From IMG/VR virus record IMGVR_UViG_2690315808_000002: DNA of 14,412 nt; one strand, given 5' to 3'. The stretch is from a virus (Duplodnaviria > Heunggongvirae > Uroviricota > Caudoviricetes). The notes under the pieces are model-generated. The model was not told the origin of the DNA. It did no database searches and was given only the letters and a program-made list of their open reading frames with translations. The position numbers and the translations under genes were made by a program. Shown here in pieces: positions 8,807 to 10,935 of this stretch (position 1 is its first letter; the number at the start of each line of letters is the position of its first letter).

Positions 8807-9436
8807 ATGCATCGTATAGACACGAAAACCGCGCAGAAGGATAAGTTCGGCGCGGGTAAGAACGGTTTTACCCGTGGTAACCCCCAGACCGGCACGCCTG
8901 CCACCGATCTGGATGATGACTACTTTGACATGTTGCAGGAGGAACTTTGCAGCGTGGTGGAGGCATCCGGTGCCAGCCTGGAGAAGGGGCGGCACGACCA
9001 GTTACTTACCGCACTTCGCGCGCTGCTGTTAAGCCGCAAGAATCCGTTTGGCGATATCAAATCGGATGGCACTGTGCAAACGGCTCTCGAAAACCTTGGT
9101 TTGGGAGAAGGAGCAAAACTCAATGCAGCAACGGCTACATTAGGACGCACCGGTTTCATAGCTATACCGGTTATGATTGGTGGTATTGAGCAATCAGTAA
9201 TCATTCAGTGGGGGTGGAATGCCGCAAAAGCATCTGCCTCTGGGGGGGATGGAAATACAGTTGTATTCCCGGTTGCGTTTAATAATGCCTGTGTTGCCGT
9301 TGTTGCAAATTATGACAATGTCAGCGCACCTATCAATGCAGTGGCAACGGGGGATATACAACCACTTCGTTTTTATTACGGTGCGCAGCTCAAACGGGTA
9401 GTTATTACTATAACTGGATTGCTATTGGGTATTAAG
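8807..9436 (+). CDS. stfP: Side tail fibre: constant N-terminal part (to about codon 97) plus the variable C-terminal cassette in its current orientation
   Basis: First 210 codons of the continuous ORF 8807..9850; the crossover site lies at codons 93-101 (ENLGLGEG). There is no stop codon before the Tfa-like part (see finding). Confidence 0.7.
9084..9109. repeat. Left crossover site of the invertible segment (hix/gix-like 12-2-12 site)
   Basis: CTCTCGAAAACC-TT-GGTTTGGGAGAA; inverted repeat of the site at 10910-10935; right half-site identical to the reverse complement of the partner left half-site. Confidence 0.75.
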
Positions 9437-9850
9437 ATGAAAATATACTGTTGCTTAAATACCGTTGGTTTTTTTATGGATGGCTGTGGCGTCATTCCGC
9501 CAGATTCTAAAGAAATAACGGCAGAACACTGGCAGTCATTATTAAAATCTCAAGCTGAAGGAGGCGTGATCGATTTTTCTGTTTTTCCTCCTTCTATTAA
9601 AGAGGTTATCCGTACTCATGATGATGAAGTCGCAGATGCGAACTTTCAAAAGCAGATGCTTATCTCTGATGCAACTGATTTTATCAATAGCAGACAGTGG
9701 CAGGGTAAGGCTGCATTGGGAAGACTTAAAGAAGATGAGCTGAAACAATATAATTTGTGGCTGGATTATCTGGAAGCACTGGAACTGGTTGATACATCCA
9801 GTGCGCCAGATATTGAATGGCCTACGCCTCCGGCAGTTCAGGCCAGATGA
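9437..9850 (+). CDS. tfaP: Tail fibre assembly protein (Tfa), 137 aa
   Basis: ATG at 9437; C-terminus (WLDYLEALELVDTSSAPDIEWP) parallels the C-terminus of the convergent Tfa on the minus strand (LDYIDAVTATDTSTAPDVIWP). Confidence 0.7.
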   Translation: MKIYCCLNTVGFFMDGCGVIPPDSKEITAEHWQSLLKSQAEGGVIDFSVFPPSIKEVIRTHDDEVADANFQKQMLISDATDFINSRQWQGKAALGRLKEDELKQYNLWLDYLEALELVDTSSAPDIEWPTPPAVQAR

Positions 9851-10424
9851 CATCCGGCGCGGTGCTGGTATCTGTTGCCGTCACCGCGTCAATGTAATCC
9901 AGCACAGCGTTAAGTCTGGTTGTTTCTGCCTGCGTCAGTTTACGTCCGGCCTGCAATTTCAGTTGAATCAGACTAATGGAAGCCATTGCAGCATCAATCA
10001 GTGACTGGCGCTGTGCTTCTGCCGCGTCTACTGCGGCGCTATGCTGTGCTTCAGTATCGGTCACCCATTTCTCACCATCCCATTTATCGTATGGAGATAA
10101 AGGGGCGATAGTGGTTGTATTTTCAGGGTAATCACCCGGAGCTTTGATTTCTTTTGATTCTCCAGTTTTGGTGCTATAGACCGTTTCACCGCGATGGTCT
10201 GGCACATATTCCCATGAGTTAAAATCTGCAGAACGGCAGATTGCATAACCAGCCTTATGTGTACCAGGGGCATCTAAACAGGAACATGCCGGAATGCCGA
10301 CACCAACGGCAAGATATTCATTTGAAGTGGAAATATATTCCCGTGTTTCACCATCGTAGTTATAAACGGTAACATCCCCTGCCTTTGTTGCAATAAGGTC
10401 ACTATTTAATATTGCTTTATGCAT
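9822..10424 (-). CDS. tfaE: Tail fibre assembly protein (Tfa), alternative copy, 200 aa
   Basis: Intact ORF; Tfa-like C-terminus; 3' end overlaps the 3' end of tfaP by 29 bp. Confidence 0.8.
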   Translation of the reverse strand: MHKAILNSDLIATKAGDVTVYNYDGETREYISTSNEYLAVGVGIPACSCLDAPGTHKAGYAICRSADFNSWEYVPDHRGETVYSTKTGESKEIKAPGDYPENTTTIAPLSPYDKWDGEKWVTDTEAQHSAAVDAAEAQRQSLIDAAMASISLIQLKLQAGRKLTQAETTRLNAVLDYIDAVTATDTSTAPDVIWPELPEA

Positions 10425-10924
10425 CAGGCTGCCCTCACGATATAGTTAAATGCAATATTACGCGGACGCGTTTCTGAGGCTGCGGCACCTAAACCATCCA
10501 CTGATTGTTTATATGTTTTAAAGGTTCCATAATCCGGGGCTGGTAATCCGGCATCGTTTGTGTTTCCTCTTTTGATAATGTCAGTGCCACTATTTACCCA
10601 TATTTCATCAAAATAGAAATTAATCGTTGCATCAGTCACAATCGTGGATCTTGACGGTAATCCATGAGCATGATCCTCCGTTGCATACCCCTGAATACTT
10701 AAAATAGAGCGACCTGTATCAATCCCCCGCCCGTCATCCCAGCCACGAATAAACTCACCACGTAAATCAGGCAATTTATTTGTCGGATAAGCCTTTGCCA
10801 GTTCCGGGTATTCTTCAGCAGAAAAAGCGGCACCATTGCATTTCAGCCAGCCTGTTGGCGGAGTGGCTGAAGGCCACGGAACCGGGACACCAACAGGTAA
10901 TGCAGAGCCTTCTCCCAAACCAAC
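10424..10924 (-). CDS. stfE: Alternative tail-fibre C-terminal cassette with no start of its own; expressed only after inversion fuses it to the stfP N-terminus
   Basis: Begins at the crossover site with VGLGEGS, matching LGLGEG in stfP; contains a tail-collar-type motif (LPDLRGEFIRGWDDGRGID). The ORF-track N-terminal extension to 10963 lies outside the invertible segment. Confidence 0.75.
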   Translation of the reverse strand, partial: VGLGEGSALPVGVPVPWPSATPPTGWLKCNGAAFSAEEYPELAKAYPTNKLPDLRGEFIRGWDDGRGIDTGRSILSIQGYATEDHAHGLPSRSTIVTDATINFYFDEIWVNSGTDIIKRGNTNDAGLPAPDYGTFKTYKQSVDGLGAAASETRPRNIAFNYIVRAA

Positions 10925-10935
10925 GTTTATGAAAA
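10910..10935. repeat. Right crossover site of the invertible segment
   Basis: TTCTCCCAAACC-AA-CGTTTATGAAAA; 17 of 26 positions match the Mu gix site as I recall it; inverted relative to the 9084-9109 site. Confidence 0.75.

Follow-up and report, generated by a model that had tools for sequence, protein, structure and literature searches.

The closest described relatives of the switch analysed here are the DNA inversion systems of the Hin/Gin/Cin/Pin family, in which two inverted, imperfectly palindromic 26-bp sites of 12-2-12 architecture carry identical, non-palindromic central dinucleotides and both orientations of the intervening segment are found. The recombinases are small serine recombinases with an N-terminal resolvase domain that contains the catalytic serine, and with a C-terminal helix-turn-helix. 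They depend on Fis and on a recombinational enhancer in cis, which measures about 65 bp and has a Fis site at either end. In the case of Salmonella, the mechanism of H-segment inversion by Hin has been documented, and Gln151, Arg154, and Leu155 of Hin are the residues that contact Fis (PMC3798978). In the host-range modules of virion-producing phages—the G segment of Mu and the C segment of P1—the crossover is located within a fibre gene, whose constant 5' part is in frame with either of two C-terminal cassettes, each of which is accompanied by an assembly or chaperone gene. The P-invertible segment of the defective Escherichia coli K-12 prophage e14 and its invertase Pin (pinE) are included in every K-12 annotation. 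They were described in 1983–85, and the papers cited for them are van de Putte et al. 1984, Plasterk & van de Putte 1985, Kutsukake et al. 1985, and Mehta et al. 2004. Goldberg et al. 2014 (PMC4272514) showed that the P segment flips at the population level, and Kirigo et al. 2025 (PMC12529663) published a possible role of the segment against phages.

The whole stretch of 14,412 bases that we analysed (the window) is identical to e14 of MG1655 at all positions except for one 1-nt gap, a missing G, and it shares with the e14 P segment not only the sequence but also the flanking genes (lit, intE ... pinE, mcrA). We are therefore nearly certain that the switch in the window is the P-invertible segment of e14, a site-specific inversion switch of the Gin/Cin/Hin type, and as such it is already known and not new. 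The sequence-only reading from which our analysis started was silent on the identity with the P segment, on the defective status of the prophage, and on a frameshift in stfP. The features of the switch are compiled in Table 1.

Table 1. Elements of the invertible segment and its surroundings, in window coordinates.
Element	Position	Strand	Basis and remarks
Constant 5' tail-fibre part (stfP/ycfK codons 1–97)	8807..9097	+	ORF; K-12 annotation ycfK; outside the invertible segment; counterpart of Mu Sc
Left 26-bp recombination site (12-2-12)	9084-9109		CTCTCGAAAACC-TT-GGTTTGGGAGAA; crossover dinucleotide TT, 9096-9097
Variable C-terminal cassette of StfP (Gp53-like_C)	9098..9436	+	Presently joined to the constant part; frameshifted in the window
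tfaP, tail-fibre assembly gene paired with stfP	9437..9850	+	Pfam Caudo_TAP PF02413, E 1.3e-19; K-12 annotation
tfaE, tail-fibre assembly gene paired with stfE (alternative cassette)	9822..10424	-	Pfam Caudo_TAP, E 8.7e-33
stfE, alternative variable C-terminal cassette	10424..10921	-	Pfam Collar PF07484, E 1.3e-15
Right 26-bp recombination site	10910-10935		TTCTCCCAAACC-AA-CGTTTATGAAAA; crossover dinucleotide AA, 10922-10923
pinE, serine DNA invertase, 184 aa	10990..11544	+	Pfam Resolvase PF00239, E 2.4e-51; HTH_7 PF02796, E 2.6e-14
Predicted Fis-dependent recombinational enhancer	11012..11074		Inside pinE; can be aligned with the enhancer annotation of P1 cin (+19..+90)

The best inverted repeat within positions 7000–12500 has arms of 21 nt (9091–9111 and 10908–10928) that are 95% complementary, and the repeats TTGGTTTGGGAGAAGG and CCTTCTCCCAAACCAA agree with those published for e14; their spacing is 1796 nt in the window, compared to 1797 nt in the published description (PMC12529663). 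The sequence-only reading had placed two inverted, hix/gix-like sites of 26 bp in this region, and this claim is well supported: in inverted orientation, the left and right sites are identical at 21 of 26 positions, and no other place in the entire window matches the consensus TTMTCNWAAACCNNGGTTTWNGAKAA (up to 3 mismatches allowed; 0.01 matches expected by chance), which was derived solely from the half-sites of Mu gix and P1 cix. None of 200 shuffled controls reached at least two matches. A search with just the core pattern AAACCNNGGTTT, in which no more than 1 mismatch was tolerated, did not give a significant result (2 matches versus 0.7 expected, a count that was reached in 21 of 200 shuffles), and it takes the full 26-bp consensus to discriminate. 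As the central TT and AA are complementary, both sites have TT when read from outside to inside, and the locus therefore has the pair of inverted 12-2-12 sites with identical, non-palindromic central dinucleotides that is typical of the family. When the sites were aligned with gix, cix, and hix, drawn from the DNA of Mu, P1, and Salmonella, the e14 half-sites matched the family consensus at 8–10 of 12 positions, which is inside the range of 5–12 that is covered by proven sites. The right site has a degenerate outer half, TTTTCATAAACG, with CGTTT where GGTTT is expected beside the crossover and a consensus match of 8/12; the outer half-site of the proven hixR is more degenerate (5/12).

Both sites are embedded in coding sequence. 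The left site lies in ..ENLGLGEG.. codons on the plus strand and the right site in ..NVGLGEG.. codons on the minus strand, and the translations thus agree with the earlier assignment of the sites to GLGEG codons of two oppositely oriented fibre cassettes. In-silico inversion of 9098–10921 generated an uninterrupted ORF of 262 aa that consists of StfP residues 1–97 and the StfE cassette, which is the in-frame exchange of the stfP C-terminus that had been postulated. The constant part can be joined in frame to either cassette because the crossover is at bases 2–3 of a Leu codon within the shared ..NLGLGEG.. motif. As in the Mu G and P1 C modules, either cassette (Gp53-like_C or Collar) is followed by its own assembly gene, in both cases of the Caudo_TAP type, and the 3' end of tfaE overlaps convergently with tfaP by 29 nt. 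The tail-collar motif that had been recognized in the stfE cassette is a Pfam Collar domain, and this cassette is silent as a fibre C-terminus in the orientation of the window.

The accompanying claim that the stfP cassette is expressed in this orientation can be retained only in part: the cassette is joined to the constant part, but it is frameshifted. K-12 reference-type genomes have a run of six G, whereas the window has only five at positions 9349–9353, and as a consequence of this homopolymer difference the predicted products change. The frame shift fuses stfP and tfaP to a single ORF of 347 aa, and the match of the window stfP to Pfam PF21882 covers profile positions 6–47 of 84, in comparison to 6–84 of 84 in the K-12 reference protein. 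Among the RefSeq complete genomes, only two have the G5 run, and neither agrees with the window in other places: in CV601gfp, tfaP and stfE contain additional frameshifts, and in 07-4299 the context is P2-like. We consider it improbable that the contraction is a real variant and not an assembly error; if it were real, it would add a second, slipped-strand layer to the inversion. There would then be a StfP–TfaP fusion in one orientation and a truncated StfE2–TfaP fusion of 264 aa after inversion, and the StfE2-based anti-phage phenotype reported in 2025 would be altered or abolished.

The recombinase gene was correctly located by the sequence-only reading, as pinE starts 55 bases past position 10935 and encodes an invertase of the Gin/Cin/Hin type. 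PinE shares 82% identity with P1 Cin, 78% with Mu Gin, and 65% with Hin, and the closest solved structure is that of Gin (3uj3, E 7e-93). The protein has the N-terminal resolvase domain and the C-terminal helix-turn-helix of small serine recombinases, the catalytic Ser9 is invariant in the alignment of PinE, Cin, Gin, and Hin, and Q150, R153, and L154 of PinE, which correspond to the Fis-contacting residues Q151, R154, and L155 of Hin, are in invariant alignment columns as well. The start codon of StfE/StfE2 (10963) is situated in the 54-nt spacer that separates the right site from pinE. A promoter/terminator scan of 8500–11700 found no sigma-70-like promoter on either strand of this spacer, and as its 8 sites versus 5.2 expected are at chance level, the scan is uninformative with regard to the expression of pinE and stfE/stfE2.

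An enhancer had been suggested to reside in the 5' part of pinE, at about 11000–11150, and a candidate for it exists: the annotated enhancer of P1 cin aligns to pinE codons 8–29, and this region of pinE contains two Fis-like 15-bp cores at 11012–11026 (TATCAACAAATGACC) and 11060–11074 (GTGCAGGATGCGAGC), whose centres are 48 bp apart. Matches to the Fis consensus are co-positioned in pinE, cin, and gin, as found by scanning, and in hin, as judged by eye from the sequence. The consensus is loose and matches often (the scanned 151 nt of pinE contain six matches with no more than 1 mismatch), and the region is also constrained by its coding function. Synonymous-site conservation, for which pinE was compared with cin only, had no power to support or refute the prediction (10 of 19 codons identical in the enhancer versus 51 of 122 elsewhere, p = 0.46).

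The overall design is closest to that of the Mu G segment. The gene order is the same in Mu and e14: gp47-like and gp48-like genes are followed by the constant fibre part, the left site, a cassette with its assembly gene, the inverted assembly gene and cassette of the alternative, the right site, and the invertase gene. In the window, the gp48 family of Mu is represented by YmfQ, and there is a pseudogene of baseplate J/gp47 upstream. Residues 38–97 of StfP share 33% identity with the N-terminal part of Mu S (E 5e-9). Both gix and the e14 sites have the 12-2-12 arrangement with an AAACC-NN-GGTTT core, the crossover occurs at the equivalent codon position within the conserved peptide (E/Q)NLGL, the distance from the crossover to the start codon of the invertase is 67 bp in each case, and the predicted enhancer of pinE matches that of gin in its place within the gene. 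Differences are found in the central dinucleotide (TT in e14, TC in Mu), in the length of the constant fibre part (97 versus about 170 codons), and in the size of the invertible segment (1.8 versus 3 kb). The cassettes are unrelated in sequence except for the C-terminus of the assembly protein, where TfaE shows a weak similarity to Mu U (E 0.046), and orthology of the e14 and Mu cassettes was rejected.

With P1, e14 shares the closest invertase and the central TT dinucleotide, and the inner half-sites are very similar (GGTTTAAGAGAA in P1, GGTTTGGGAGAA in e14). In P1, however, cin is found upstream of cixL and points at the segment, which places the P1 enhancer about 500 bp from the nearest site, and the C segment is larger (4.2 kb). 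Salmonella has a recombinase of the same family, the same 26-bp site design, and, with two cores 48 bp apart, a Fis enhancer at the position in the invertase gene that is predicted for e14. Unlike in e14, hin and the enhancer are inside the inverted segment, and the output of this flagellar phase variation is the orientation of the fljBA promoter and not the exchange of a coding end.

By analogy with these systems, PinE dimers would bind to both 26-bp sites and, together with host Fis on the enhancer in the 5' end of pinE, would form an invertasome on supercoiled DNA. Ser9 would generate 2-bp staggered cuts at the central TT/AA, one pair of subunits would rotate by 180 degrees, and the ~1.83-kb segment (9097–10922) would be re-ligated in the opposite orientation. 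The 97-codon constant part would be continued either by stfP with its gp53-like domain, followed by tfaP, or by stfE with its tail-collar domain, followed by tfaE. For the Fis and enhancer dependence and for the cleavage chemistry, we infer from the family that they apply to e14 as well; the sites, the frame, the domains, and the homologies are directly observed in our analysis, as are the two orientations in genomes. No evidence contradicts this mechanism.

That the segment flips is evident from complete E. coli genomes. Among 5,426 of these, 170 have the segment in the orientation of the window and 113 are collinear with its in-silico inverted form, and the carriers of the inverted form include MG1655, DH1, DH5alpha, S17-1, and EMG2. 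Sister stocks of MG1655 differ in the orientation of the P segment. The sequence-only reading had called for both orientations within a population, and the outcome is in its favour. Inversion in living cultures has been demonstrated in the literature: WGS and PCR detected both orientations side by side in clonal cultures of MGY (PMC4272514), their coexistence in MG1655-derived clonal cultures has been established by sequencing, PCR, and qPCR (PMC4272514; PMC12529663), and wild-type BW25113 cultures showed ~30% inversion by qPCR (PMC12529663). The dependence on the invertase gene has also been demonstrated, as the segment was locked when pinE was deleted (PMC12529663).

A different account holds that the relevant driver is PinQ (Qin) or PinR (Rac), acting in trans, and that the output is anti-phage defence instead of a PinE-driven change in tail-fibre host range; a chimeric StfE2, read from the right junction, would block T2 adsorption. 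Overproduction of PinQ resulted in 88% inversion, inverted cells were T2-resistant, and plasmid-produced StfE2 reduced adsorption (PMC12529663), but the StfE2 mechanism is based on overexpression and docking, and the scan did not yield any promoter-like site for the minus strand of the spacer in which StfE/StfE2 starts. We regard this account as rather unlikely, and as it concerns the physiological role and not the DNA mechanism, it is compatible with the explanation of the locus as a PinE switch. The inverted repeat with its 95% complementarity could also be taken as a substrate for RecA-dependent general homologous recombination, which would flip the segment without site-specific recombination. 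Its 20 matching bases are fewer than RecA usually needs to recombine DNA efficiently. Moreover, the repeat has the architecture of an invertase site and adjoins an intact invertase gene, the inverted form is present in the recA laboratory strains DH5alpha and DH1, and in view of the census of orientations and the published dependence on pinE (PMC12529663), we reject this explanation, which has almost no probability left. A dead relic, locked in one orientation by its degenerate right outer half-site or by the decay of a defective prophage with several pseudogenes, is practically inconceivable, since hixR functions with a worse half-site, and since the census of near-identical K-12 derivatives and the published PCR and qPCR on clonal cultures (PMC4272514; PMC12529663) refute it.

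In summary, the locus is best explained as a PinE-dependent switch of the Gin/Cin/Hin type. The discovery value is small, as the P segment and Pin have long been described, and the analysis has its value as a positive control, in which the sites, the crossover, the frame, the recombinase, and the approximate enhancer position were reconstructed from the raw sequence and were all upheld. The switch operates in the manner of the Mu and P1 modules. Unlike the viable phage Mu, e14 is a defective prophage: the window contains terminase, portal, and baseplate J only as pseudogenes or pseudogene fragments, there are no head or sheath genes, and e14 in the window is thus not a virion-producing phage like those that carry the G and C modules. 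As most virion genes are missing, the original host-range function cannot operate from e14 alone, and this role is vestigial. The differences in P-segment orientation among K-12 assemblies represent biology and not misassembly.

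The window is the defective prophage e14 of Escherichia coli K-12, and its inversion system is not new but is the already known P segment of e14, reportedly described in 1983-85 by van de Putte, Plasterk, Kutsukake and colleagues. A megablast search with positions 8700-11600 against 5,426 complete E. coli genomes gave full-length matches to K-12 strains, among them MG1655, C600, J53 and RR1 (rounded 100.0% identity, one 1-nt gap), and a base-by-base comparison found the 14,412 bases identical to MG1655 save one deleted G, in a run at 9349-9353 that is G5 in the window and G6 in the MG1655 reference. 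The sequence-only reading had proposed a complete switch like the G segment of Mu at 9084-10935; its observation is confirmed, and its interpretation is supported.

Features of the e14 inversion module and its surroundings (window coordinates)
Feature	Position	Description
Gene order of the prophage		lit, intE, xisE, ymfH-ymfT, pseudogene fragments (terminase, portal, baseplate J), ymfQ, ycfK (stfP), tfaP, tfaE, "phage tail protein" (stfE), pinE, mcrA; from the RefSeq annotation of one MG1655 record
Baseplate J/gp47 fragment	7398-8228	precedes ymfQ
ymfQ	8219-8803	Mu gp48-family baseplate protein
Left 26-bp site	9084-9109	CTCTCGAAAACC-TT-GGTTTGGGAGAA
Right 26-bp site	10910-10935	TTCTCCCAAACC-AA-CGTTTATGAAAA
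pinE	10990-11544	starts 55 bases past the right site
Predicted Fis-like cores	11012-11026 and 11060-11074	centres 48 bp apart, total span 63 bp

The inverted repeat that ranked highest in a scan of 5.5 kb has arms of 21 nt at 9091-9111 and 10908-10928 that are 95% complementary. The two 26-bp sites, compared in inverted orientation, are identical at 21 of 26 positions and share their central dinucleotide if each is read from outside to inside. A site consensus was built solely from the half-sites of Mu gix and P1 cix, with e14 excluded to avoid circularity, and at up to three mismatches it matched the whole window exactly twice, at these two sites, where 0.01 matches were expected by chance; two matches were reached in none of 200 shuffles. 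The 12-base core by itself was not significant in the window search. hixL and hixR were recovered together with hin from a Salmonella genome, and in the resulting comparison table of eight sites, 8-10 of 12 positions in the e14 half-sites agree with a consensus drawn from the other sites, within the range of the experimentally proven sites (5-12 of 12). The postulated pair of inverted, hix/gix-like 12-2-12 sites is thus borne out by the inverted repeat, the consensus search and the alignment with gix, hix and cix.

Both sites lie within fibre reading frames: a plus-strand ORF from 8807 spans the left site with TALENLGLGEGAKLN, and a minus-strand ORF spans the right site with NVGLGEGSALPV. In-silico inversion of 9098-10921 produced an open frame of 262 aa that consists of StfP residues 1-97 and the StfE cassette, which is the in-frame swap of the stfP C-terminus that had been predicted. 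The crossover dinucleotide corresponds to bases 2-3 of a Leu codon in e14 (A-L-E-N-L-G-L-G-E-G) as well as in Mu (L-F-I-Q-N-L-G-L-Q-E), and one P1 frame reads I-Q-Y-L-G-L-R-E with the crossover in the same register; the sites are therefore homologously placed in the fibre genes. Judging from its alignment (33% identity, E 5e-9), the constant part of stfP is a distant relative of the N-terminal region of Mu S. The cassette now expressed contains Gp53-like_C (PF21882), the silent stfE cassette contains the tail Collar domain (PF07484, E 1.3e-15) already recognized as a tail-collar motif, and a Caudo_TAP assembly gene follows each of the two. The genes tfaP (plus strand) and tfaE (minus strand) are convergent, and their 3' ends overlap by 29 nt at 9822-9850, midway along the invertible segment. 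For stfE, the annotated ORF begins with an ATG at 10963 (minus strand), outside the segment and within the spacer of 54 nt that separates the right site from pinE, and this spacer (10936-10963, minus strand) encodes roughly the first 14 residues of the ORF (MMPFACYFFIFINV); in Mu, the GeneMark-predicted Mup52 likewise overruns the G boundary.

In the orientation of the window, it is indeed the stfP cassette that is joined to the constant part, as had been claimed, but the G5 run shifts the frame of this "expressed" cassette. The result is an in-frame fusion with tfaP (347-aa ORF, 8807-9850), and the Gp53-like_C match breaks off at position 47 of a profile of 84 positions, which the K-12 reference protein matches to its last position (84 of 84). 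Of the 283 complete genomes with this cassette, only 2 have G5, and in both records several genes nearby are "frameshifted"; the likeliest explanation is therefore a sequencing error in the homopolymer, with a real mutation being conceivable.

The invertase gene, correctly placed 55 bp outside the right site, encodes a protein with Resolvase and HTH_7 domains. This protein shares 82% identity with Cin, 78% with Gin and 65% with Hin, and among solved structures its best match is Gin (3uj3, E 7e-93). Ser9, Q150, R153 and L154 of PinE are invariant in comparison with Cin, Gin and Hin, and the latter three correspond to Hin Gln151, Arg154 and Leu155, the Fis-contact patch conserved among Fis/enhancer-dependent invertases (McLean et al., PMC3798978). 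The P1 genome record has an "enhancer of Cin-mediated C-segment inversion" annotated at +19..+90 of cin, and pinE aligns with cin and gin across this stretch without gaps. A scan of pinE, cin and gin with the 15-bp Fis consensus GNNYRNNWNNYRNNC gave cores at +23..+37 and +71..+85, and the same two positions are found in hin by eye in the aligned sequence, if one extra codon is allowed for. The Fis enhancer suspected in the 5' part of pinE (about 11000-11150) is thus predicted at 11012-11074 by homology and by a Fis consensus that is loose, in a region that also encodes the catalytic N-terminus. The span of the predicted cores would agree with the description of the enhancer as a 65-bp element with one Fis site per end (PMC3798978). 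In e14 (10923-10990) as in the Mu comparison locus (L003, 5526-5593), 67 bp separate the crossover from the start codon of the invertase gene. The centre of the first Fis-like core therefore lies 96.5 bp from the crossover in both, whereas it lies about one helical turn farther away in Salmonella hin (106.5 bp, against a published "about 100 bp").

The P segment does flip. When 8700-11600 was inverted in silico and the same 5,426 genomes were searched for a single place covering at least 80% of the query, the inverted form was found in 113 genomes and the window form, by the same criterion, in 170, together all 283 genomes that carry the cassette. The 25 inverted-form matches listed are single-piece and full-length. 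Inverted-form genomes include MG1655 stocks, DH1, DH5alpha, S17-1, EMG2 and NEB Turbo, and clonal relatives that differ in orientation alone indicate repeated inversion. The two orientations, on whose existence the sequence-only reading had made itself dependent, also coexist inside clonal MG1655-derived cultures, as evidenced by whole-genome sequencing and PCR (Goldberg et al., PMC4272514). Wild-type BW25113 cultures showed ~30% inversion, which was 49% with extra PinE, the segment was locked in a pinE mutant, and inversions were present in 33% of 562 deposited genomes (Kirigo et al., PMC12529663).

Membership in the Hin/Gin family, as reviewed in PMC3798978, suggests how this inversion would proceed. 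PinE dimers would bind both sites and, at a branch in the supercoiled DNA, join the Fis-bound enhancer to form the active tetramer, Ser9 would cut TT/AA with a 2-bp stagger, and one subunit pair would rotate by 180 degrees before re-ligation. With inverted sites, a core dinucleotide that is not palindromic would enforce inversion, not deletion. The sites, the reading frame, the domains and the flipping are established by the results above. It is from the family likeness that we infer the Fis dependence and the exact cut positions of the PinE system.

With regard to the biological role, the 2025 paper (PMC12529663) proposes that StfE2, the right-junction product after inversion, which it treats as a functional protein, keeps T2 from adsorbing, and that the segment is also inverted by PinQ and PinR, which other cryptic prophages encode. 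However, a promoter-like site for the StfE2 ORF was looked for on the minus strand of the spacer, and none was found. We regard this proposal as a rival account of the role that leaves the DNA mechanism untouched. The host-range output of the e14 switch is vestigial, as e14 cannot make virions.

By its match to PF10076 (E 1.3e-26) and its 29% identity with Mu gp48, YmfQ is a member of the Mu gp48 family, and with its cassette, assembly and invertase content, the module is thus arranged like Mu, which has the same layout (gp47, gp48, S, U, U', S', gin). Together with the gp47 fragment before ymfQ, this makes e14, which is otherwise labelled lambdoid, Mu-like at its tail end. Escherichia phage vB_EcoM-689R6 (ON470584.1) looks like a more complete e14 relative: its 43-kb myovirus record starts (positions 1-6579) with an invertase that shares 96% identity with PinE and with a homologue of mcrA, next to which the other strand carries a side tail fibre gene and then Mup48 to Mup43, tail genes of Mu type. 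These 6579 positions contain no tail-fibre assembly cassettes, possibly due to an assembly break at the invertible segment. In E. coli 07-4299 (NZ_CP027462.1, 1-5131), a similar gene set with a gp53-like fragment, tfaP and tfaE adjoins a recombinase-family gene of another kind (WP_000905033.1), a long fibre gene with a tail collar, and genes for a P2-type sheath and tube. The cassettes thus seem to move between different backbones of myoviruses.
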